Positions 2,676 to 43,018 of a stretch of 64,000 bases of DNA are shown here, piece after piece. The position numbers were made by a program, and so were the translations under genes. The notes below the pieces were generated by a model. The model saw only the letters and a list, made by a program, of their open reading frames with translations, ran no database searches and was not told where the DNA came from. Each line of letters opens with the position of its first letter. The first letter of the stretch is position 1. The stretch is from a phage, in the sequence record PX880103.1. The stretch is one strand, 5' to 3'.

Positions 2676-4358
2676 TTAAACCATTACAGTAAATCGACCA
2701 ACTTTCTTCATTTGAAGATGCTGACCGTATGCTTGCGGGTCATGGTCTCTATGCGAAATAACAAAAACGTTAGTATTTTTTAAACTATCTAAAATAGTTG
2801 AAATAGCTTTTACACCTTCAACGTCGGTCGCTGAATCAAAAACTTCGTCAAGAATTAGCGTGTTTATTTTAACACCTGAAACTTTTTCAGCAATATCACG
2901 CCAAGTAAATAAAAGAGCAATATCAATTCGTGCTTTTTCACCTTGACTGAATGAAGCATAACTAAAATCTTCACGACCACGGGATTTAATTGTCTCATTA
3001 AATTCTTCATCTAATGTAAACACATAATCCGCTTCCATTATTTTAAGATAATGGTTAATCTGCTTATTAAATAATGGAATGTACTTTTTAATAATAGCAC
3101 CTTTAATACCAGAATCTTTGAGCATATCAGTCAAAATTCCTCGGTGGTATTTTTCCATTACTAAATTAGTTTTTGTCTTAACAATTTTATCAAGTTCTTC
3201 TTGAAGCAGTGCTATTTCATCAGCATGGTCAATAAACTCAGAAGATGCTTTTTCTATAGCCGCTTTAACTTTTTTAGCTTTATCTACCGTCGTGATTAGA
3301 GATTGCTTTTTATTGCGAATATCATTTGCCAACGACTGTTGGGTTTTAATATTATCTCGGTATTCATCAACAAGAACTTTTAAATTATCACGGTGTGTTG
3401 AAAGCTGTTCAAACGAATACGTACATTCAGAAACTTTATCTTTAATTTTGGAAACAACTTTATCACCGGAACTCAATTGCGACAAACAGGTTGGACATAA
3501 TCCACCTTCGTGATACATATTAATGACTTTATTATACGAGTCAATTTTTGATTTAATTAAAACTGCTTCTTGACCGATTTTATTAAATGCATCAGTCGGG
3601 TCTTCATCTAAAACAATATTAACTAATCTTTCATTAGCTTCTTCTATTTCCGATTTTAGCGTTCTAGCTTCTTTTGCCAAATCATCATACATATTTTGCA
3701 GACGAGTAAGGTTGTCACCAGTTAATTTTTTCTGGCGTTCAACATTATCATTATATATTTTAATTTGTTGGATAATACTATCTTTTTTAACATCAAGCAC
3801 TTGGTTCTGTGAATTTAATTCACGTATTAGTGCTTTGTTAAGCTTATCCATTTCAGCTAATGTTCCTACCTCAAGCAGGTCTTCCACAAGCTTTCTTCGC
3901 ACAGGGGTCGACAAACCCATGAAAGGGGTATACCCTGCTGTACCAAGGACAACAATCTGCTTGAAACTGGCATATGACATTCCGATAAGCTGTTCAAATT
4001 CTGCTTGGAAATCTTTACTGCTGGCAGATTCATTAAGACGTGTACCGTTAACGGTGATTTCGAAAACGTTTGGTTTTTGTCCTCTTTTGATATAGTACTT
4101 TTTCTCATCATATTCCATCCACAGTTCAACTAAAAGTTCTTTCTTATTTGTGCTGTTTATTAATTGACCTTTCTTTACATCACGAAATGGCTTGCCAAAA
4201 AGCCCAAATGTGATGGCTTCTAACATAGTAGACTTACCACCGCCATTTCGTCCAGTAATAAGAGTTTTTTGAACCTTATCTAATTGAATGTCAACTCCAT
4301 TTTGACCAACTGACATTATATTTTTATATTTTACTCTATTAAGTTTAAATGATTTCAT
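2676..4358 (-). CDS. 46: recombination endonuclease subunit gp46 (Rad50/SbcC-like ATPase)
   Basis: 560 aa, Walker A GRNGGGKST near N-terminus, long coiled-coil middle, signature/Walker B near C-terminus (LILDEVFDS). Confidence 0.9.
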   Translation of the reverse strand: MKSFKLNRVKYKNIMSVGQNGVDIQLDKVQKTLITGRNGGGKSTMLEAITFGLFGKPFRDVKKGQLINSTNKKELLVELWMEYDEKKYYIKRGQKPNVFEITVNGTRLNESASSKDFQAEFEQLIGMSYASFKQIVVLGTAGYTPFMGLSTPVRRKLVEDLLEVGTLAEMDKLNKALIRELNSQNQVLDVKKDSIIQQIKIYNDNVERQKKLTGDNLTRLQNMYDDLAKEARTLKSEIEEANERLVNIVLDEDPTDAFNKIGQEAVLIKSKIDSYNKVINMYHEGGLCPTCLSQLSSGDKVVSKIKDKVSECTYSFEQLSTHRDNLKVLVDEYRDNIKTQQSLANDIRNKKQSLITTVDKAKKVKAAIEKASSEFIDHADEIALLQEELDKIVKTKTNLVMEKYHRGILTDMLKDSGIKGAIIKKYIPLFNKQINHYLKIMEADYVFTLDEEFNETIKSRGREDFSYASFSQGEKARIDIALLFTWRDIAEKVSGVKINTLILDEVFDSATDVEGVKAISTILDSLKNTNVFVISHRDHDPQAYGQHLQMKKVGRFTVMV

Positions 4359-11077: not shown

Positions 11078-11109
11078 TAATAATACCATAGTTTGAACTT
11101 GTTGTAAAC
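11078..11109 (-). promoter_or_regulatory. T4-type early promoter candidate
   Basis: On minus strand GTTTAC then ~18 nt then TGGTATTAT. Confidence 0.4.
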
Positions 11110-11189
11110 AACTTTGTGAAAAATATTTTAGGGAATGATAAGAAAGGAACGATAGCTTAGAATGGTAATATACAGAATGCGAGAAAGAA

Positions 11190-23211: not shown

Positions 23212-23250
23212 GCTTGTAAACAACTTTGTGAAAAATTTTTGAAATAAAAA

Positions 23251-27498: not shown

Positions 27499-27711
27499 TC
27501 ATTTTTGTCCTGTATTTACTTTATGCCGATGCACGGCCTTAACTTTATCAAGGTATTTTTCAAAATTTCGCAATCTAGTATAGTCTGCCAGAGATTGGTT
27601 GAGTGATACTTCTCGACGCAAAGCTGAAATGATATTTCCAACTTCCCTACGAATTTCATCTAATTGAAGCACAGTAAGATTGCGAAGTTGCTTTTCAGTT
27701 AATTGTAGCAT
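27499..27711 (-). CDS. hypothetical protein (rI.1-like)
   Basis: 70 aa ORF. Confidence 0.4.
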
Positions 27712-27739
27712 ATATACCCCTTTAGTTAGATAAACCTAT

Positions 27740-28336
27740 TTATAACTTTTGCACTAACCGAGTTTTTTTAGTTAATTCATTCCAATGTTTTCTACACAAA
27801 GAAACATAAATTTCATCACCAATACAGATTTGATTACCTTCTTTAACAGGTGTTCCATCTTCCATTAATCGAGCTGTCATAATCGCTTTTTTACCGCAAT
27901 GACAAACCGCCTTTAGTTCAATAAGTTTATCTGCAATCGCTAAAAGTTCTTTAGAACCTTCAAACAATTTTCCAGCGAAATCAGTCCTTAATCCATAAGC
28001 CATAACAGGAACATTATATGTATCAACAATTCGGCTCAATTGATGCACTTGTTCAGTTTTTAAAAACTGAGCTTCATCTACAAATACGCAATGAATATCT
28101 TTTTGTGCTTCAGCCCATTTATAGAACTCGAAAATATCCATATCATCTGTAATAATATTCGCTTCCTGCTTAATTCCAATGCGAGAAACGACTTCACAGA
28201 CAGAATCGCGAGTATCAATAGCAGGCTTAAGAACTAATACACTCATTCCACGTTCTTTATAATTATGTGCAGCAGTCAAAAGAGAAGCAGATTTTCCAGC
28301 ATTCATTGCTGCATAAGTAAAAATTAAACTCGCCAT
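27740..28336 (-). CDS. tk: thymidine kinase
   Basis: 198 aa, P-loop AMNAGKSASLL, C-terminal Zn cysteines CHCGKKA...C..H. Confidence 0.9.
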   Translation of the reverse strand: MASLIFTYAAMNAGKSASLLTAAHNYKERGMSVLVLKPAIDTRDSVCEVVSRIGIKQEANIITDDMDIFEFYKWAEAQKDIHCVFVDEAQFLKTEQVHQLSRIVDTYNVPVMAYGLRTDFAGKLFEGSKELLAIADKLIELKAVCHCGKKAIMTARLMEDGTPVKEGNQICIGDEIYVSLCRKHWNELTKKTRLVQKL

Positions 28337-28337
28337 C

Positions 28338-28526
28338 TTAGTCCTTAGTTAAATTTTCTAAATATGTTTCTAAATCATTTTCAGCTTTATCGATAGATTT
28401 TACTAATTCGTAATATGTTTCGGCATCTCCATAATCAGAAGATAATTCAAAAGACAAATCCTTTTCTAAACTAACAATTTCACCAACTAAAAATAATATT
28501 TCGTTCTTTTGTTCGCGAGTAATCAT
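28338..28526 (-). CDS. hypothetical protein (tk.1-like)
   Basis: 62 aa acidic ORF. Confidence 0.35.
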   Translation of the reverse strand: MITREQKNEILFLVGEIVSLEKDLSFELSSDYGDAETYYELVKSIDKAENDLETYLENLTKD

Positions 28527-28714
28527 AAGGAATTTATATAATTAATAAGTTCTTGTTCTTTATTATCGAATTCTTTAGAAAGTTCTTCGTATTCATTTAC
28601 GTTAAAAGGACCGCATTCATTACAAACTCTTTCTAATTCACTATTTTTATCCATAACTTCGTGGATAAGAGAAAAGAGTTTGTCTTTTTGTTCTTTACTT
28701 AAACTCATAACCAT
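28523..28714 (-). CDS. hypothetical protein (tk.2-like)
   Basis: 63 aa acidic ORF. Confidence 0.35.
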   Translation of the reverse strand: MVMSLSKEQKDKLFSLIHEVMDKNSELERVCNECGPFNVNEYEELSKEFDNKEQELINYINSL

Positions 28715-28932
28715 GTCACCTTTAAGCAGTATTCTTCTACATGCTGTTTACGACCTTTCTTATCAATAAAGGTATATTCAACGAATGTTCCAATGTAGTC
28801 TTTATCTACATCATGTGGACTATTAATTGGACATTTAGTACGGCAAATGCGTTCCCATTGACGAATAATTACTGCCTTATTCTTTGGGTCATATGGATGT
28901 GGATAATGTATATTCATAATAACGGTTCCCAA
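28705..28932 (-). CDS. hypothetical protein (tk.3-like)
   Basis: 75 aa ORF. Confidence 0.35.
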   Translation of the reverse strand: MGTVIMNIHYPHPYDPKNKAVIIRQWERICRTKCPINSPHDVDKDYIGTFVEYTFIDKKGRKQHVEEYCLKVTWL

Positions 28933-29381
28933 TCAACAATCACAATTTCTAATTTAGAGGAATACGTATCTAAAATATCTTCAATAATATCCCAGTTCCC
29001 TTTACCTATGCCTGCACCAATCCTAGGCATATAGATTGTAGGTTTAATCAGTTTATTTTCACCAAACTCATTTAATTCTAACATACAATTCATTAAAGCG
29101 GAATACTCAAAATTTGGCCCTGGTTGAAATTGAGTATAAAGGTTGAAGCAATACGCTTTATGAGTCCTAAAGTATTTTTCATAGACTGAGTAAGAACCGA
29201 GTTTAGTTACATCACCCCATTCAGTCTGTAATTTATCAGCTTCCAAAATTTTAGGGAAAGCTTTGGTTAATTGACCCGCTACGCCTGAACCCATAGTATG
29301 AAAACAATTGCATCCATGCGCAATATTTTTACCTTCAGCGAAAAGGGCGACAATATCGCCCTTGATATATTTTACAATCAT
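28914..29381 (-). CDS. macro-domain protein (ADP-ribose binding/processing)
   Basis: 155 aa; GDIVALFAEGKNIAHGCNCFHTMGSGVAGQL and PRIGAGIGKGNW fit macro-domain N-terminal and C-terminal glycine-rich signatures. Confidence 0.55.
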   Translation of the reverse strand: MIVKYIKGDIVALFAEGKNIAHGCNCFHTMGSGVAGQLTKAFPKILEADKLQTEWGDVTKLGSYSVYEKYFRTHKAYCFNLYTQFQPGPNFEYSALMNCMLELNEFGENKLIKPTIYMPRIGAGIGKGNWDIIEDILDTYSSKLEIVIVDWEPLL

Positions 29382-29725
29382 CTAGTACTCAATCCTCGAT
29401 TATAAGAATCTACCAAACGGTCAACCATTGAATGACAAGCGGCTTTATCTTTCTCCTCCGCAACTGAACATTCTAAAGTATTCCACTTTTTAGCATATCG
29501 TTTTAACAATGTATAGTTTTTGTATCTGCTTGATTTATCCCTTTCTCCGTCTTTATATGCATATATTAATTTCTGTGCAAATTCAGCTTGGCATGCTTTA
29601 TTTTTCCCACAATAATCTGCCGCAGTGCGGTTTACATATTCTCTAATTTCAGTATATGATGTATCTGCTGACGCAGAAGCAGAAAATGAAATTAATCCTA
29701 TACATAAAACCAAAATTTTAGTCAT
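29378..29725 (-). CDS. vs: Vs valyl-tRNA synthetase modifier-like secreted protein
   Basis: 115 aa with N-terminal signal peptide, at the T4 vs position next to regB. Confidence 0.6.
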   Translation of the reverse strand: MTKILVLCIGLISFSASASADTSYTEIREYVNRTAADYCGKNKACQAEFAQKLIYAYKDGERDKSSRYKNYTLLKRYAKKWNTLECSVAEEKDKAACHSMVDRLVDSYNRGLSTR

Positions 29726-30263
29726 TTACTATTTCCAAAAGTTTATTATTTTTAAGGTAATTAGCCTTTTCTAGGACTTCAGAAGCATATTTAGAACCTG
29801 CTTTAACATTCCATCCCGAATTATAAGAGGATATTGCTTTTCTTATATCGCCCTTATGTATATTTAACCAATAAGAAAGTTCAATGTACGCCCAGGAAGC
29901 TGAATTGGATCGTTTATTCAACATTCTTTTTATTTCAGCATCGGTCATATTATAACCAAGTTCCTTAACTCTTGCTCGCATAGTAGGCAAATAATTTTGG
30001 AACATTCCGTAGGCGTGATGCTTTGGTTTAGATTTTAAATTAACTCCGCCAGAGCTTTCTTGCCATAAAATGGCTGCCATTATATGACCTAATCCGCTCT
30101 TGTGGATATTTTTATGTGTTTTATATTTTCCATCCTTAGAAAATTGTTCCCCGAATTGATACGCGTAACGCATGTTATCGAGTTGGACATTACTGAAAGT
30201 ATGCTCGGAGCTATGTGCCATCATTGAAATGGCCAATAGACCAGCGAGTAGTGCTTTTCTCAT
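29718..30263 (-). CDS. lytic transglycosylase-like secreted protein (vs.1-like)
   Basis: 181 aa, signal peptide, SLT-like motifs WQESSGG, YGMFQN, SYNSG. Confidence 0.5.
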   Translation of the reverse strand: MRKALLAGLLAISMMAHSSEHTFSNVQLDNMRYAYQFGEQFSKDGKYKTHKNIHKSGLGHIMAAILWQESSGGVNLKSKPKHHAYGMFQNYLPTMRARVKELGYNMTDAEIKRMLNKRSNSASWAYIELSYWLNIHKGDIRKAISSYNSGWNVKAGSKYASEVLEKANYLKNNKLLEIVND

Positions 30264-33056: not shown

Positions 33057-33359
33057 TTATTTACCTTTAATTACTTTAGCTGCTTCGATAGCCGCTTGCT
33101 GAAGGTCATCCATAGACATACCGAATTTAGAAGCAAAGTTATCAATTTTCTTTTCGACAGCATTCAAAGGCTTGGCCTGTTTACCTTCATTAGCGCCAGG
33201 AAGAGCGAGAATACGCTCTTTGTCAATATAAAGGCTTACAAGTTTCTTACGGTCTTTATCGGACAAATCATGAAATGAATGGGCCTTTTTATTTATAGCG
33301 GCTTCTAATTTACCTGCACTCACTCGCGCTTCAGTAATAAATTCTTGATATGTTTTCAT
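33057..33359 (-). CDS. ipII: internal protein II-like (capsid-targeted)
   Basis: 100 aa, N-terminal capsid targeting sequence MKTYQEFITE with ITE protease site. Confidence 0.6.
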   Translation of the reverse strand: MKTYQEFITEARVSAGKLEAAINKKAHSFHDLSDKDRKKLVSLYIDKERILALPGANEGKQAKPLNAVEKKIDNFASKFGMSMDDLQQAAIEAAKVIKGK

Positions 33360-33400: not shown

Positions 33401-33979
33401 TTAATTACCACGGGCTGCATTAGCAACGGCATAAGCGTACTGAACATTAGCGTCCTTAAACGTACCTTTAGAGGTATCTATTTCTGCCTTAAAGCCGCCT
33501 TTAGCCATAACATCGGCAAATTCTTTACGGAAAGCCATTGCATCAAGACCTTTCCATGATGATTTGTGCTTGGCGAATTCAAGACCAGCGTAGTTGACAG
33601 CCTTAGCTAATTTATTATCAATGACCCATTTACCGGCTTTAGGCACAAACTTCGGACCTTTTTGTTTAGAGAACAGTTTTAAATTCCAGCGACGAAGATC
33701 ACTGTCGGCTTTAACAAAAGCTGCGTCTAAGTTACTAGCAACAACATCTTCAATATGAGCAAATTTAAGTCCGTCAACTTCAATATTTAAATCGGTACGC
33801 CAGCGAAGTCCTTCCCAAGCGAAAGCTTTAAAATCGGAAGCTTTTGTAGCTAAGTATCGTTCAATAGGGGCTGTTTTAGGGTCAAAGCCGTTTCCACCAC
33901 GATAGTTCCACTCATCTTTATTAATGCCTTTGGCCTTTACTACAGAAGCTTCAGCGATAAATTCTTTATACGTTTTCAT
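33401..33979 (-). CDS. ipIII: internal protein III-like (capsid-targeted)
   Basis: 192 aa, N-terminal MKTYKEFIAE CTS. Confidence 0.6.
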   Translation of the reverse strand: MKTYKEFIAEASVVKAKGINKDEWNYRGGNGFDPKTAPIERYLATKASDFKAFAWEGLRWRTDLNIEVDGLKFAHIEDVVASNLDAAFVKADSDLRRWNLKLFSKQKGPKFVPKAGKWVIDNKLAKAVNYAGLEFAKHKSSWKGLDAMAFRKEFADVMAKGGFKAEIDTSKGTFKDANVQYAYAVANAARGN

Positions 33980-33995: not shown

Positions 33996-34313
33996 TTATT
34001 CTTTAGGGAAGTTTTTAGAATATGCATCATAAAGCTTATTTCCAATACGGCGGAAAACTCTAGCCGCAAAACGATTTTCTGGGTTTTTAATCATGATTTG
34101 CATCATATAAGTACCCGCGTCAGAAAGAGCTTCTTCATAGTACCCGTTAATTTCTTTAAGAGTCCTACGTTTACCACCAGGACCATCAACAGTGATTTTC
34201 CATTTACCCGTAGAAGTGCGACTTGGCGGCTCAACTTGTTCAATCCAGATATAACCGCCTTCTACACGTTGTCCTGCAGCAGATTCTGCAATAAATTCTT
34301 GATATGTTTTCAT
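33996..34313 (-). CDS. additional CTS-bearing internal-protein candidate
   Basis: 105 aa, N-terminal MKTYQEFIAE CTS; lies between e and ipIII. Confidence 0.5.
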   Translation of the reverse strand: MKTYQEFIAESAAGQRVEGGYIWIEQVEPPSRTSTGKWKITVDGPGGKRRTLKEINGYYEEALSDAGTYMMQIMIKNPENRFAARVFRRIGNKLYDAYSKNFPKE

Positions 34314-36128: not shown

Positions 36129-36684
36129 ATTTTTCTAGTAATAAATCACTTTCAAAATTAGGATTTTCCACTAATTTATCAAAAAGATCATCAACAATAT
36201 TCAAGATATTTCTTTTACTAAGAATACGTTTATTTTCATGCTTCGTTTCAGAATCAACTATAAGAGTAAAGAAATATTTCTTTCCCTGAAATTTTACTGT
36301 AGTATCAATATAGAATAAATTTGACTTTTGTAAATTACGTTTAAACCATGCGTCACTTAAACTATAAACACCGAGATAATCAAAATCGTCGTTTAAATAA
36401 CATACTGTCCATTCAGGAGAAATGAAATCAGTAAATTCAACATCAAAATCACATGTCAATGAATAAATTGATTCAATACTGTTAATAAGTATTCCAGGAC
36501 GTATTAAAGACTTTTTACCTCTGGAAAATCTTCCAGAAAGACTTTCATCAGTTTCATATGAAGAACCCCAATAATAATTACGTCCTTCTGCCATACGTTT
36601 AAGAGCATTTAATAATTGGTCTGGAACATCAACCTGTCTTTGGAACTCTTCAAACATTGAATTGAAATCACTTTGCATTTTCAT
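36076..36684 (-). CDS. hypothetical protein (e.x-like)
   Basis: 202 aa ORF. Confidence 0.4.
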   Translation of the reverse strand: MKMQSDFNSMFEEFQRQVDVPDQLLNALKRMAEGRNYYWGSSYETDESLSGRFSRGKKSLIRPGILINSIESIYSLTCDFDVEFTDFISPEWTVCYLNDDFDYLGVYSLSDAWFKRNLQKSNLFYIDTTVKFQGKKYFFTLIVDSETKHENKRILSKRNILNIVDDLFDKLVENPNFESDLLLEKFVKECREYVKTITIPSK

Positions 36685-36704
36685 TCCTATTTACTCCAAG
36701 TAAT

Positions 36705-36720
36705 AGGGGCCGAAGCCCCT
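36705..36720 (-). terminator. stem-loop with UUCG tetraloop
   Basis: AGGGGC-CGAA-GCCCCT after ORF 36726-37319. Confidence 0.45.
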
Positions 36721-36725
36721 TATCA

Positions 36726-37319
36726 TTATTTCAGAGAATTAATGTATTCCTGAACATCGGCAGAGGTAGTTTCAACCCCAGAAATATTACCATTAAAGGT
36801 TTCAACTCGAGCAAGAGTATCTTCAATATCAACCTTAGTCAGCGCTGCAATTTCAACTACATCATCGGCAGTACTAATTCCAAGGGCATTTGCTGCACGA
36901 GTTTCACGGATATATTCCAATTTAACTGCAAGTTCTTGGCGAGCATCATCTAACTCAACTACTTTCTTAGCGATTTCAATTCGCATTTCAGCATACCCAT
37001 CAGCTTTAGTAGTCAGCTGTTCAGCTGTTCGACGATATAGCAAACCGAGTTTAGCATGCATTGTTACATCTTGACCTTCGGAAAGAAGCTTGCGAATTTC
37101 ACGCTCTTTTGATTCGGCCTGTTTATTCTTTTCAATAACAAGTTCACGAATACGTTTTTCTTCATTAATAGATTTAATAGAAGCAGTTTTTAGATCTTTA
37201 ATTTTATCAAGTAGTTTTGCTGCCGCAGCAGTATACTGTTCTTCAACAGATAGATTTTTAGCCATAGCAGAACCGAGTTTAGTGCGAATAAACTCAACAA
37301 TTTTCTTCAGTGTGTTCAT
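36726..37319 (-). CDS. coiled-coil protein (e.x-like)
   Basis: 197 aa, largely helical/coiled-coil composition. Confidence 0.4.
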
Positions 37320-37362
37320 AGTATTTCCTTAGGTTAATTAAGATTTAAAATCCATGAGAGTA

Positions 37363-37539
37363 TTATACTCCGGATAGTTTGTAAACTATTTCAACATCGC
37401 CTTTTGCTGCTTTATAACCTTCAGCCCAAGATACAACCGAGTTTTTATCTGAAGATTCAAATTCTGGCATTGGGCTTTCTCCAATGTTCACGCAGTATGT
37501 TTCTTCATTTTCGTCGAACCAAATAATTAAAGTAGTCAT
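37363..37539 (-). CDS. small hypothetical protein
   Basis: 58 aa ATG ORF (MTTLIIWFDENEETY...), below ORF-track cutoff. Confidence 0.25.
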   Translation of the reverse strand: MTTLIIWFDENEETYCVNIGESPMPEFESSDKNSVVSWAEGYKAAKGDVEIVYKLSGV

Positions 37540-37607
37540 TTATTTCTCCGTTTCTGTATTTGTTTTGATAAGTCTATAATAACACCGTCCTTGGTGTTTG
37601 TACACAA

Positions 37608-37883
37608 TTATTTCATATTATTGAAATATTCTTCTGCGATTTCGTCATTATCATGGTAAACTTTAGAAGACAGTTTAACATAACCTTCTGCCGTGAACAT
37701 ATTAATCACAACCTTTACAGTATACCACTGACCATCTTCATTACCCATTACTGCGTAAGTTTCAAACATCGGATGGTCAGGACCGATAACTTTAATATCA
37801 TTCACTGTACGACCAAAATCTTCTGAAACGCATTTCATAAAGAAGTTGAACAGTTCGCCGTAATTATCCATTTTATTCTCCAA
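37608..37883 (-). CDS. hypothetical protein (e.x-like)
   Basis: 91 aa ORF with early-promoter motif upstream. Confidence 0.4.
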   Translation of the reverse strand: MENKMDNYGELFNFFMKCVSEDFGRTVNDIKVIGPDHPMFETYAVMGNEDGQWYTVKVVINMFTAEGYVKLSSKVYHDNDEIAEEYFNNMK

Positions 37884-37907
37884 GTTGTTTTCTGTATCAG
37901 TAGTTGA

Positions 37908-37944
37908 TAGTTTTATAGTACCATGGAAGAACAGGGATGTAAAC
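37908..37944 (-). promoter_or_regulatory. T4-type early promoter candidate (repeated cassette)
   Basis: Minus strand AAAACTGTTTAC ... TGGTACTATAAAACTATCAAC. Confidence 0.45.
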
Positions 37945-38100
37945 AGTTTTGTGAAAAATTTTTAGGGAATTCTAGGGGCAGGGAGGGGCAATTAAAAGAT
38001 AGGATAATATATTATAAAGGGTATAAACTAAATGATGCCTAGAGAGGTCTGGAAAGGCCTAGATACCAAAAATCCCTATCATTTAGATAGGGATTTAAAA

Positions 38101-38664
38101 TTATTTACCTAGTTTAGTTATTATAGCTTCGGCAGCAGCTTTTAGCTTAGATGCAGTGTTAATACGATTTTTAATTTCAGTATAAGCATCGCCAAGAACA
38201 TCAAGGCTATCAGAATAAACACTTACACTATTGCGTTCGCTATTTGAAATAGAACCTTTAGTTTTACGATCAAAATCAGTGTACACATCTTGAAGATCGC
38301 GGGCTGCCTTCTTTGCATCATCTAACGCATCAAGAGCTTTATTCAAAGCATTGACATATTTTTTAGTATCAAACATATTCTTAGAAATTTTGACAGGTGC
38401 GCGTTCAGGAGTAGCTAAGGCAGATTTAGGAACCTGAGCGCCTGATGCTAATTTCTTAGAAATTTTGAAAAATGCTTTATTGAATTTATTTTCTTGACTC
38501 ATCGTAAAAGAACTATTATCAATGTTATACATTTCAATAGCTTTAGCTTTCCACTTAAGAAAATCGCCACGGTCTTTTGGGTCCAATTGGAAGAATACTT
38601 TAGTAAGATCTGCTTCAGATGGTAATTTTGCTGCTTCGGTTAAAAATTCGGCATAGGTTTTCAT
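38101..38664 (-). CDS. CTS-bearing protein (e.8-like), possible internal protein
   Basis: 187 aa, N-terminus MKTYAEFLTEAAKL resembles capsid targeting sequence. Confidence 0.45.
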   Translation of the reverse strand: MKTYAEFLTEAAKLPSEADLTKVFFQLDPKDRGDFLKWKAKAIEMYNIDNSSFTMSQENKFNKAFFKISKKLASGAQVPKSALATPERAPVKISKNMFDTKKYVNALNKALDALDDAKKAARDLQDVYTDFDRKTKGSISNSERNSVSVYSDSLDVLGDAYTEIKNRINTASKLKAAAEAIITKLGK

Positions 38665-39436: not shown

Positions 39437-39919
39437 TTATTTTATGTAATATTTATTTAAAAACTTTCTAGCTTGAGTATGGCTAACATTTATAGCGTTT
39501 GCATAATTTTTAATAAAACCTCGTTCATCCATATTAAAATTTTCTAATATTTTTAATCGTCTAGTTATCTCATCTTGACTTAAGGTACTTGCATTATTTT
39601 TAGAAATTTTTTCTAAGGACTGTGCCGAGTGTTTTCGACCATTAAAATTAAAATTTTTAGATTTTGGAGGAAATCTAGCATTTAATCTCGCATCTTTTGT
39701 ATTTTGATTATTAGTTGCGCAATATATGTTATTTAATGAATATGGTCCTTTATCGCCGAAACGGCACATGCAGTATTCATGACCCTTTCTTCCACGCTTA
39801 TCATAATTTCCCGTTGATTTCCACCAATGCAACCATTCATCAAAAGTTAAATTCCATTCAATGTTTCTACGTATAGCAGAATTCCGCTGAGAAATATATT
39901 TTGCATAATCTTCTTTCAT
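39437..39919 (-). CDS. endonuclease-like protein inside the tRNA cluster (degenerate HNH_3-like, with C-terminal DNA-binding-like region)
   Basis: 160 aa from ATG; segment GHEYCMCRFGDKGPYSLNNIYCATNNQN loosely resembles HNH_3 core (H..DGN..NN...NL..T..N); basic C-terminus. Confidence 0.4.
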   Translation of the reverse strand: MKEDYAKYISQRNSAIRRNIEWNLTFDEWLHWWKSTGNYDKRGRKGHEYCMCRFGDKGPYSLNNIYCATNNQNTKDARLNARFPPKSKNFNFNGRKHSAQSLEKISKNNASTLSQDEITRRLKILENFNMDERGFIKNYANAINVSHTQARKFLNKYYIK

Positions 39920-39966
39920 CACAAATTTCTCTACTTATTCAATACACTGAGCTAAATCAGCAAAAC

Positions 39967-40314: not shown

Positions 40315-40923
40315 TTATTTATTACGTGAAAAAGACTGTTCTATCAATTCTGGACACTTTCGTTCTATCCATTTTCTAGCTTTTTGTGGGCTTATACCTA
40401 TTATTTTAGCAGCTTTACTAACCCATCCAAATTTAGAATAATCGATTTTAACTAATTCTTCGTAAATTTCATCAGTTAAAATCTTTTCATTAATATTTAC
40501 CAGTAAATGATATAATTTATTATCATTAGCAATTTTAATGAATCTTTTATAGTTTCCGCCTTTACTTAAACCTAATGAAGTAATTGCAGATGATATAGTA
40601 GCCGAATTTAATAGCGCGTTTAAAATTTCTTCATCACTAACATTATAACGCTTTTTATTATTTTTAATATTTTTACCAGCAAAAGTATCAGTTTGCGAAT
40701 GGCAGTTTGGACATAATAATCTTAAATTAGATTTAAGATGATTTTTGTTATTTCCATCAATATGGTCTAATTGCAGAACAATATGCTTATTTTGCCATTT
40801 TGAAATTTTACAAATTGCACACTCATATGGAAAAATATTTTCTTTTATTATTTTGTCTTTCAGCTTTCCTGTACTAAAATTTGGATGTTTTCCTTCAAAA
40901 ATTTCAGCTAATTTAGTATCCAT
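40315..40923 (-). CDS. free-standing HNH homing endonuclease
   Basis: HNH motif CAICKISKWQNKHIVLQLDHIDGNNKNHLKSNLRLLCPNCHSQTD; ends 6 nt from tRNA-Leu; ATG start at 40923 (track start is TTG). Confidence 0.75.
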   Translation of the reverse strand: MDTKLAEIFEGKHPNFSTGKLKDKIIKENIFPYECAICKISKWQNKHIVLQLDHIDGNNKNHLKSNLRLLCPNCHSQTDTFAGKNIKNNKKRYNVSDEEILNALLNSATISSAITSLGLSKGGNYKRFIKIANDNKLYHLLVNINEKILTDEIYEELVKIDYSKFGWVSKAAKIIGISPQKARKWIERKCPELIEQSFSRNK

Positions 40924-41033
40924 AATATAATTCCCAATTATTAACAAAGGCTCTCAAACAAGAACCCTTGATGATAGAGGGTATTAATCAGTGCGGTATG
41001 AGTTAATAATAACAAATAATTCTTAAAGCATAT

Positions 41034-41321
41034 TTACCATTTATGATGATACGTATTTACGATACATTCAAAACCCAAAGGATTCTTGAAAATATCATAT
41101 TCAAGAGGACCTTTTTCTGTTTCAATAAAGAAATCAAAATTTACTGTATTAAATTTACGGTCTTCCTTCACTAATTTAACCTGAGAAGATGAACGGTCAA
41201 TGTAAACCTTTTCAACTTCAAAACATGTTAAAATGCCATAATCATCAATCAAGGCTTTAGCTGCTTCTTGATCATATTTATATCCATTTTCAATGGATGA
41301 TACTTTAGCATAAAGAATCAT
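41034..41321 (-). CDS. hypothetical protein (ipI-locus)
   Basis: 95 aa ORF. Confidence 0.4.
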   Translation of the reverse strand: MILYAKVSSIENGYKYDQEAAKALIDDYGILTCFEVEKVYIDRSSSQVKLVKEDRKFNTVNFDFFIETEKGPLEYDIFKNPLGFECIVNTYHHKW

Positions 41322-41323
41322 TA

Positions 41324-41734
41324 TCAGCCTCTATCAACAATAGCATGAGTATGGGCATTTACGATTTGCCACCAGTCGAAACGATTGGAACCATAATCTG
41401 GTTTATTTTCATTTTCTTTAATGATATCACGCAGTTTATCTTCTGTTTCAGCATACGCAATTAAATCATCATATCCACCACAAGGATAATAATTATCACC
41501 TGCGAATAAAAGAAAATTTACCTTAGATGGATTTACGTAATAATGGTCTTTAGGATATTTAGTTCCTCTCCAATCAGTTACTTCAACATAACGATAAGAA
41601 AATCCATTTTTACTTTCAATCCAACTCCACGCTTCAAAAGGAGTATTAAAAACTTTATCAGGTATTAAATTACCTTCAAAATGAGAAGGATTTGCATAAT
41701 CCCCGGCATAAACATAATATTCGTTAATACTCAT
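41324..41734 (-). CDS. hypothetical protein (ipI-locus)
   Basis: 136 aa ORF, aromatic-rich. Confidence 0.4.
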   Translation of the reverse strand: MSINEYYVYAGDYANPSHFEGNLIPDKVFNTPFEAWSWIESKNGFSYRYVEVTDWRGTKYPKDHYYVNPSKVNFLLFAGDNYYPCGGYDDLIAYAETEDKLRDIIKENENKPDYGSNRFDWWQIVNAHTHAIVDRG

Positions 41735-41920
41735 TTATTCACCTTTAGAAATTTTATCCATAACGATAGCGATTAAACCAATTAAAAATGCTACTACAAG
41801 TGAAAACACATTTTCTGCTGTAGTTAATAATCCGCATATAAATCCAACAAACATTGAAAAACTAAAAGCGGAAGCAGAAATTGCAATAGCAACATTTCGA
41901 ATTAATTCACAGCGTTTCAT
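41735..41920 (-). CDS. small membrane protein (ipI-locus)
   Basis: 61 aa, two hydrophobic segments; early-promoter motif upstream. Confidence 0.4.
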   Translation of the reverse strand: MKRCELIRNVAIAISASAFSFSMFVGFICGLLTTAENVFSLVVAFLIGLIAIVMDKISKGE

Positions 41921-41942
41921 TTTATTCTCCTCAGTAGTTGAT

Positions 41943-41977
41943 AGGGTAATAGTATCACAACTAAAACCCTATGTAAA
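41943..41977 (-). promoter_or_regulatory. T4-type early promoter candidate
   Basis: Minus strand TTTCACAAAGTTGTTTAC ... GTGATACTATTACCC. Confidence 0.45.
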
Positions 41978-41990
41978 CAACTTTGTGAAA

Positions 41991-42248
41991 TTATTTTAAA
42001 TCTTCTAATCGTTTCTTCATCTTAGAACCGTTCTTAGCGATTTCGCCTGCATCAGAGCATAATGCTAAAAGTGCTTTAACTTTAGTTTGGTCTCCTTTAA
42101 AAGATGAAGGATCAACAGCAGCAGCAAGTTCTTTAATACGAGAGAAAAGACGCTCAGCTTCAGCTAAAGCCATTCCAAGCTTTACTTCCATACCGTGGGA
42201 AGATTCAGTGATAGTAGTTTTTGTAGCAAACTCTTTGAAAGTTTTCAT
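41991..42248 (-). CDS. CTS-bearing small protein at ipI position (internal protein candidate)
   Basis: 85 aa, N-terminus MKTFKEFATKTTITE resembles CTS with ITE cleavage site; adjacent to 57B as ipI is in T4; early promoter upstream. Confidence 0.45.
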   Translation of the reverse strand: MKTFKEFATKTTITESSHGMEVKLGMALAEAERLFSRIKELAAAVDPSSFKGDQTKVKALLALCSDAGEIAKNGSKMKKRLEDLK

Positions 42249-42274
42249 TTTTATTTTCCTAATTAATTCTGATG

Positions 42275-42309
42275 AGATAATAGTATCACTACCTCATCAG
42301 TATGTAAAC
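42275..42309 (-). promoter_or_regulatory. T4-type early promoter candidate upstream of ipI-locus gene
   Basis: Minus strand TTTCACAAAGTTGTTTAC ... GTGATACTATTATC. Confidence 0.45.
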
Positions 42310-42321
42310 AACTTTGTGAAA

Positions 42322-43018
<697 letters not shown>

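Follow-up and report, generated by a model that had tools for sequence, protein, structure and literature searches.

Ip5 at the ipI slot of a T-even phage: gene identity, flanking promoter cassettes and a possible strain-specific target

Introduction

The region between gene 57B and a downstream HNH endonuclease gene in the phage record PX880103.1 holds four small open reading frames (ORFs) and raises a simple question: which of them belong to the ipI locus of the T-even phages, and do they help the phage against host defenses? The original prediction, made from the sequence, took all four for ipI-locus genes and connected them with host-range and anti-restriction functions. We analyzed the locus within the window, i.e. 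the full 64,000-nt stretch of this record, in which all genes of the locus lie on the minus strand. As a whole, we consider it rather probable that the T4 block 57B - Ip slot - trna.4 - trna.3 - trna.2 makes up this region, with ip5 in place of the ipI gene of T4.

The internal proteins (Ip) of these phages are marked for packaging by an N-terminal signal and injected together with the DNA (PMC12373910; for the role of the leader also PMC3012670). Three of them, Ip1, Ip2 and Ip3 of T4, are inhibitors of type IV restriction enzymes of the GmrSD kind, each acting on a different one and giving no cross-protection (PMC12373910), and the product of the Bas37_0260 gene at the ipI locus inhibits McrBC (HIDEN-SEQ preprint, 10.1101/2025.11.20.689424).

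Identity of the four genes

The ORF at positions 41991-42248, with the N-terminus MKTFKEFATKTTITE, encodes Ip5: all 85 of its residues are identical to those of Ip5 from phages RB15, RB14 and Bas37, of which the RB15 protein is the type, named in 1994. Ip5 is further carried by T2, T6 and RB32. The three remaining ORFs were identified by pairwise comparison with T4: trna.2 (41034-41321, 95 amino acids) agrees with T4 Trna.2 in 93 of 95 residues (97.9 %), trna.3 (41324-41734, 136 amino acids) and trna.4 (41735-41920, 61 amino acids) agree with their T4 namesakes in every residue (136/136 and 61/61, 100 %). Thus the four ORFs of 95, 136, 61 and 85 amino acids reported between the HNH gene and 57B were confirmed by the ORF list and by PHROG and Pfam, and their joint assignment to the ipI locus had to be abandoned, as three of them are T4 trna.2, trna.3 and trna.4. 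The upstream neighbor, 57B (42322-42780, 152 amino acids), is the Acb1 phosphodiesterase directed against the cyclic oligonucleotide-based anti-phage signaling system (CBASS); it matches the Pfam family Acb1 with an E-value of 2.7e-60 and is identical to T4 57B in 152 of 152 residues. Further upstream are ORFs positioned as 57A, gene 1, gene 3 and gene 2 of the annotated relatives.

The same names are found in the annotations of other phages: RB14 and PP01 list trna.2, trna.3, trna.4 and Ip5, and T4 lists trna.2, trna.3, trna.4 and ipI. A megablast search with positions 40950-42330 matched 691 phage records, almost all of them T-even phages of Escherichia, Shigella and Yersinia, and in 299 of the 691 at least 80 % of the query was covered at one place. 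We regard the gene identities (trna.2, trna.3, trna.4 and Ip5) as virtually certain. The arrangement is already described: the genes and their names, the leader, the repeats with promoter and stem-loop and the hypervariable nature of the slot have been on record from 1994 onward. The exact proteins are present in hundreds of sequenced phages, and the locus matters little as a discovery. The original prediction named, as the result that would overturn it, close T4 homologues of known non-defense function for all four proteins; since the close T4 homologues that exist for three of them have no known function, this is not literally what was found, but the novelty that it implied is absent.

Hypervariability is confined to the slot between 57B and trna.4

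We compared 20 loci from IMG/VR collected around relatives of trna.4 and annotated by BLAST against the window proteins. The order 57A-57B-slot-trna.4 was kept in all 20 loci, down to 38 % identity of trna.4, so that even its distant relatives stay behind 57B and the Ip slot. In 19 of the 20 loci trna.4 was followed by trna.3 and then, usually, by trna.2. The slot itself contained from 0 to 4 ORFs, most of which started with MKT(F/Y)xEF. The layout of the window, with Ip5 as the single gene of the slot, recurs in Shfl2, pSs-1 and PP01, which gave one-piece megablast matches with 100 % coverage (PP01 is so annotated). The matches that were broken into several pieces reflect extra Ip genes: RB14 has ipI and ip5, in JK23 and Bas37 ip5 is accompanied by an Ip6-like gene, and RB32 has Ip7 and Ip9 besides Ip5.

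Hypervariability is therefore confined to the interval between 57B and trna.4, and trna.2, trna.3 and trna.4, with their constant order, are outside it. What had been said of the ipI region as a whole holds for the slot with its 0 to 4 leader-bearing genes and does not extend to these three neighbors. It was correct to take the 85-residue ORF for one of the alternative alleles of the ipI slot and to see a capsid-targeting leader in it, as judged by its MKTFKEF start and its position between 57B and trna.4. For the phage of the window this means that Ip5 is present at the ipI slot and that IPI and the Ip6-like McrBC inhibitor are both missing there.

Ip5 is a predicted injected protein with an orphan body

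Ip5 has the features by which the internal proteins of T-even phages are recognized, namely a leader of the MKT(Y/F)xEF type, an (L/I)-x-E motif and a position at the IP locus with flanking repeats. The leader comprises residues 1-15 (42204-42248), starts with MKTFKEF and ends with I13-T14-E15 just before the conserved body. The (L/I)-x-E motif is the consensus of the head protease gp21 in T4 head maturation. T4 IPI has the same start and likewise reads MKTFKEF...TITE. Positions M1, T3 and F7 do not vary in an alignment of the window protein with four family members, and the MKT[FY]..F leader, 10 or 15 residues long, is kept in all five together with an [IL]xE site (ITE or LAE). The same alignment revealed two invariant blocks in the body, KLGxAL.EAE.L..RI.ELA and EIAKNG...K.RLE. 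The predicted mature protein (residues 16-85) has 70 residues, a mass of 7.5 kDa and an isoelectric point (pI) of 9.2, with 13 lysines and arginines versus 10 aspartates and glutamates.

According to its AlphaFold2 model, Ip5 would fold into an antiparallel hairpin of two helices (residues 3-44 and 54-84; mean predicted local distance difference test score, pLDDT, of 79). A Foldseek search of the PDB with this model returned generic helical hairpins, none with E <= 1e-3, and a sequence search of the PDB gave nothing at E < 0.7. When 1.8 billion representatives were searched with mature Ip5 by HMMER, its own family alone was recovered, in two clusters that are both of the Ip5 type. Since the HMMER, PDB and Foldseek searches yield only its own family or generic hairpins, Ip5 is, by these comparisons, a T-even-restricted orphan unrelated to IPI*. 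Beyond the leader it does not resemble T4 IPI, as the original prediction had noticed: the global identity is 27 %, and only MKTFKEF and TITE are common to both.

We find it very probable that Ip5 is packaged and injected, a prediction that draws on the leader and the cleavage motif. The 15-residue leader MKTFKEFATKTTITE would take Ip5 to the prohead core, gp21 would cleave it after ITE15, ahead of Ser16, and the 70-residue basic helical hairpin would then be ejected together with the DNA.

Promoter and stem-loop cassettes flank ip5

Two copies of a 68-nt direct repeat (41939-42006 and 42270-42337, 84 % identical) are located on the two sides of ip5, and in both of them a promoter scan found TTTACA-17 nt-TACTAT with a TG extension. 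The early-promoter cassettes proposed for this region are real and exist in two copies: cassette A, the 57B/ip5 intergenic region (42249-42321), precedes ip5, and cassette B, the ip5/trna.4 intergenic region (41921-41990), precedes the trna.4-trna.3-trna.2 block. In cassette A the -35 element is at 42303-42308 and the -10 element at 42280-42285, the latter enclosed by a 14-bp stem-loop (42269-42300) whose fold of -20.6 kcal/mol (z -4.0) was matched in stability by 0 of 200 shuffles. In cassette B the corresponding positions are 41972-41977, 41949-41954 and about 41941-41972, followed by a GAGGAG ribosome-binding site; the fold amounts to -19.3 kcal/mol (z -2.5). The layout is a stop codon, TTTCACAAAGTT, the -35 element GTTTACA, the stem-loop around the extended -10 element TGATACTAT, a ribosome-binding site and ATG.

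We aligned the intergenic cassettes of the window, T4, RB14, JK23, Bas37 and PP01 on the -35 element. They are mostly of one design, in which TTTCACAAAGTT and GTTTACA are followed by the left stem arm, GTGATACTAT and the right stem arm; the ip6/trna.4 spacers of JK23 and Bas37 are shorter and have no TTTCACAAAGTT arm. The stems differ between cassettes A and B (CTGATGAGGTAGTG versus ATAGGGT), yet each of them still pairs. The window cassettes are essentially the pair that flanks ipI in T4, cassette A being nearly identical to the T4 57B/ipI cassette, and the design of cassette B recurs in T4, RB14, PP01, Bas37 and JK23. Between these T4-type cassettes the ipI ORF is cleanly replaced by the ip5 ORF. 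The ip5/ipI cassette of RB14 (3836-3907 of the retrieved RB14 stretch) is chimeric, with a left arm of the 'GGGTTTTAG' type, a right arm of the 'CTCATCA...AATTAATTAGG' type and the junction within the -10 loop. This chimera fits what recombination within the cassette loop would produce, and it is compatible with a mechanism in which single Ip genes would be swapped in and out of the slot by recombination between cassettes.

The early transcription of ip5 would be driven by cassette A and that of trna.4-trna.3-trna.2 by cassette B. Broida and Abelson are said to have reported in 1985 that the trna.2-4 ORFs are located in the leader of a transcript running on into the T4 tRNA cluster; if this layout holds, cassette B would be the early promoter of the whole unit of trna.2-4 and the tRNA cluster. 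The 18-nt left arm TTTCACAAAGTTGTTTAC occurs in five copies in the window (<=2 mismatches) versus 0.01 expected by chance. Its copies elsewhere in the window, at 11104-11121, 23216-23233 and 37939-37956 (minus strand), are situated ahead of promoter-like sequences and ATG starts.

Does Ip5 counteract a strain-specific host defense?

Public transposon data on Bas37 (MZ501089) bear on this question, as its gene Bas37_0261 encodes a protein 100 % identical to the window Ip5; the adjoining Bas37_0260 encodes a 77-residue Ip6-like protein that is absent from the window. All values given here are log2 fold changes (log2FC) of the Bas37 library relative to K-12, taken from Extended Data Table 7 of the HIDEN-SEQ preprint (10.1101/2025.11.20.689424). 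On K-12 the ip5 gene of Bas37 is non-essential, with insertions at 18 of 18 TA sites. On the uropathogenic E. coli strain CFT073 it is among the 14 significant genes, with a log2FC of -2.09 (adjusted p 0.00000), versus -0.01 on CFE299, -0.01 on CFE303, -0.13 on CFE331 and +0.26 on CFE336. The authors of the preprint neither discussed nor validated this depletion. A role of Ip5 as the McrBC inhibitor of Bas37 was considered and rejected, as the inhibitor is the product of the neighboring 77-residue Ip6-like gene.

CFT073 is listed with a GmrSD homologue, c5421. In the immigration control region of this strain (NC_004431) a truncated DUF262 pseudogene stands beside a gene for a 387-residue GmrSD-domain protein, followed by SymE and a type I restriction-modification system, beyond which a second DUF262 protein of 550 residues is encoded. 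By the RefSeq annotation the defense loci are at 27679-29772 and 36396-38048 of the retrieved NC_004431 stretch.

The DUF262/GmrSD-domain genes of CFT073 are candidates for the targets of Ip5, and together with a depletion seen on CFT073 only they make a strain-specific Ip5 target plausible. Mature Ip5 would most likely bind and block a strain-specific host defense, probably a modification-dependent nuclease, and its target would differ from those of T4 Ip1-3 and of the Ip6-like protein of Bas37. For the general statement that Ip5 acts as an anti-defense inhibitor we see the chances as about even; the narrower version, in which injected Ip5 inhibits a CFT073 defense system that is absent or inactive in K-12 and in the four other clinical strains, we put forward tentatively, at somewhat less than even.

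Several observations weigh against this role of Ip5. A single pooled transposon experiment, with 17 TA sites, is the source of the CFT073 signal, which the authors did not follow up. The 57B/acb1 orthologue, bas37_0262, is also depleted on CFT073 (log2FC -1.56, adjusted p 0.003), so local effects may contribute to the ip5 signal; on CFE331, which carries CBASS, the value for this gene is -0.83 and not significant. Silas et al. assayed ip4-10 against GmrSD variants and obtained no reproducible inhibition (PMC12373910). Phages T2 and T6, both of which have Ip5, are restricted by UTI89_C2960, GmrSD-ECOR21 and GmrSD-ECOR17, and T2 additionally by the GmrSD of CT596, as has been published; thus Ip5 does not block those enzymes. 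Additionally, the presence of Ip5 in the virion and its injection are predictions, and the AlphaFold2 model is built on a single sequence with a predicted template modeling score (pTM) of 0.49.

One could argue that the depletion of ip5 insertions on CFT073 is technical or indirect, i.e. that it is due to polarity, to altered transcription of a neighbor upon loss of the cassette terminator or to sampling noise. The scale of the experiment, the accompanying depletion of 57B and the silence of the authors all speak for such a view. However, none of the four genes that follow ip5 shows depletion on CFT073 (bas37_0260 +5.04, 0259 +0.06, 0258 -0.06 and 0257 -0.13), and downstream polarity was rejected as the cause of the signal. 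Furthermore, 57B is upstream of ip5 and hence out of reach of polar effects of ip5 insertions, and the same library displayed no ip5 effect on the four other strains. The depletion of 57B on CFT073 could itself reflect a cyclic-nucleotide defense of this strain or polarity of the 57B insertions onto ip5. We consider a technical or indirect origin of the ip5 signal unlikely.

Alternatively, Ip5 could be packaged and ejected and yet have a generic role only, as a DNA-associated basic filler, a charge neutralizer or a core component of the head, with no specific host target. The basic pI of the mature protein, its simple helical hairpin with uninformative fold matches, the failure of ip4-10 to inhibit any GmrSD variant and the dispensability of ip5 on K-12 and on four clinical strains agree with this. 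Contrastingly, a defect confined to certain hosts would not be expected of a filler, and the depletion is 4-fold and on CFT073 only; the turnover of the slot between unrelated proteins is the pattern of an arms race and not of a structural gene; and 4 of the 4 functionally tested proteins of the class inhibit defenses. We find a generic role distinctly unlikely.

Should Ip5 indeed inhibit a defense system of CFT073, it would bring to five the number of internal proteins with an assigned target, and its helical-hairpin fold would be unlike IPI*. The unreported CFT073-specific depletion is a testable lead to this target. The identity of the Ip allele in a T-even phage is of help in predicting the wild E. 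coli strains that the phage can infect, which is relevant to the choice of therapeutic phages.

The trna.2, trna.3 and trna.4 proteins

The three genes behind the slot have a different character. Trna.2 is predicted to be an acidic soluble protein with no assigned function; it matches phrog_2023 (E 1e-47), and its homologues are solely from T4-like phages, or unnamed. Trna.3, likewise acidic and soluble, is predicted to have two small alpha/beta domains, of which the C-terminal one (residues ~73-136) is the conserved unit: these ~64 residues (NFLLFAGDNYYP.GGY...FDWWQIV) are kept, and the variable N-terminal half is exchanged for unrelated sequence in many T-even phages, the overall identity among relatives ranging from 37 to 100 %. 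The C-terminal domain alone makes up ~60-80-residue proteins in distant phages, as shown by a BFVD structure search, whose matches were all uncharacterised phage proteins, and by comparison of loci. Trna.4 matches phrog_1692 (E 6e-35) and is a predicted two-helix membrane protein; the membrane-like character ascribed to it before agrees with its two hydrophobic segments (Kyte-Doolittle means over 19 residues of up to 2.03 and 2.35). Within Tequatrovirus trna.2 and trna.4 are close to invariant.

All three genes are non-essential in T4 (saturation 0.92-0.98), and so are their orthologues in Bas37, for which |log2FC| did not exceed 0.25 on any of the five uropathogenic strains, CFT073, CFE299, CFE303, CFE331 and CFE336. 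A capsid-targeting leader was looked for in the three proteins and found in none, a literature search on trna.2, trna.3 and trna.4 brought nothing, and a PDB sequence search with a trna.3 profile had no matches. Precomputed Pfam labels exist for trna.3 (PF26894) and trna.2 (PF27001). PADLOC gave zero matches for the four proteins of the locus, and nothing came near the cutoff in NCBIfam or in the Pfam copy scanned, which does not include PF26894 and PF27001.

That all four ORFs, trna.2-4 included, are host-range or anti-restriction genes of the ipI locus is very unlikely: they are small, early and non-essential genes beside the Ip slot and Acb1, trna.3 is highly variable in its N-terminal half and many such accessory genes of T4 proved to be anti-defense genes (10.1101/2025.11.20.689424), but the near-invariance of trna.2 and trna.4 and a gene order constant across the T-even phages set them apart from the slot, none of the three has the leader, their insertions are neutral on five clinical strains, and PADLOC, NCBIfam and Pfam are silent at their cutoffs. 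The anti-restriction functions brought up in the original prediction are well founded for known proteins of the Ip class (PMC12373910; 10.1101/2025.11.20.689424), and it is their extension to trna.2-4 that is not supported, the insertions being neutral. We regard trna.2, trna.3 and trna.4 as non-essential early accessory proteins, for which an anti-defense role is possible but unsupported.

Neighboring genes and other leader-bearing ORFs

The HNH gene downstream of the locus (40315-40947, 210 amino acids; phrog_14736 HNH endonuclease, E 6e-124) is 94.8 % identical to Bas37_0256, a 'putative homing endonuclease', and occupies the place of tRNA-Gln in T4. According to the tRNA list of the window, its tRNA cluster lacks tRNA-Gln and tRNA-Thr in comparison with T4. 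At the site where T4 has tRNA-Thr there is an ORF of 161 amino acids (39437-39922; phrog_16521, function not assigned). The whole stretch with the HNH gene and this ORF is matched in one piece by Lutter, pSe_SNUABM_01 and four further phages; Bas37 has the HNH gene alone.

Four more ORFs of the window start with the capsid-targeting motif MKTY.EF (33057-33359, 33401-33979, 33996-34313 and 38101-38664). Two of them match the PHROG 'internal virion protein' families phrog_7857 and phrog_5341, one encodes a protein of 105 amino acids with no assigned function (phrog_3966), and one, which immediately precedes the tRNA cluster and so belongs to neither of the two classical IP loci, encodes a protein of 187 amino acids (phrog_2280).

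Comparison with known systems

The cassettes of the window resemble the PeSLs of RB49 and phi1 (PMC2839356) in being repeated intergenic elements of ~70 nt that combine an early promoter with a stem-loop beside a single non-essential ORF, here an ORFan, and a stem-loop that overlaps the -10 element is one of the PeSL subclasses described there. The stems of the window (CTGATGAG..., ATAGGG...) have no GGGG...CCCC, and the RB49-type promoter and G/C-tract stems that would indicate homology are not present. This agrees with Arbiol et al., who regard the elements of the T-even IP locus as analogues and not homologues of PeSLs, built on T4 early promoters and having weaker, AT-richer stems without GGGG/CCCC (PMC2839356). 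In the account of that paper Repoila et al. (1994) are credited as the first to see the repeat elements of the IP locus.

Compared with Bas37_0260, Ip5 is likewise a small orphan with a leader of the same class, and in Bas37 the two share the slot, side by side. They are unrelated (24.7 % global identity), and the mutant phenotype of Bas37_0260 is seen on K-12, where McrBC is the target, whereas the signal of Ip5 is seen on CFT073.

T4 IPI, whose mature form IPI* inhibits the GmrSD of CT596, has the same locus, flanking cassettes, MKTFKEF start and ITE motif as Ip5, and the mature proteins are similar in size and charge (70 residues and pI 9.2 for Ip5, 76 residues and pI 9.0 for IPI). However, the mature parts have no detectable similarity, the global identity being confined to the two shared motifs, and the predicted all-helical hairpin of Ip5 differs from the two beta sheets flanked by helices of IPI* (PMC3012670). 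Global alignment, predicted fold and PDB sequence search gave no sign of homology between mature Ip5 and IPI*. Since T2, in spite of its Ip5, is still restricted by the CT596 GmrSD, the target of Ip5 differs from that of IPI.

The trna.2-4 genes have the order and spacing of their T4 counterparts, the difference being the HNH gene that follows trna.2 where T4 has tRNA-Gln. From the named Ip5 of RB15, RB14 and Bas37 the window gene does not differ in substance: the sequence, the slot between 57B and trna.4 and the flanking cassettes are all the same.

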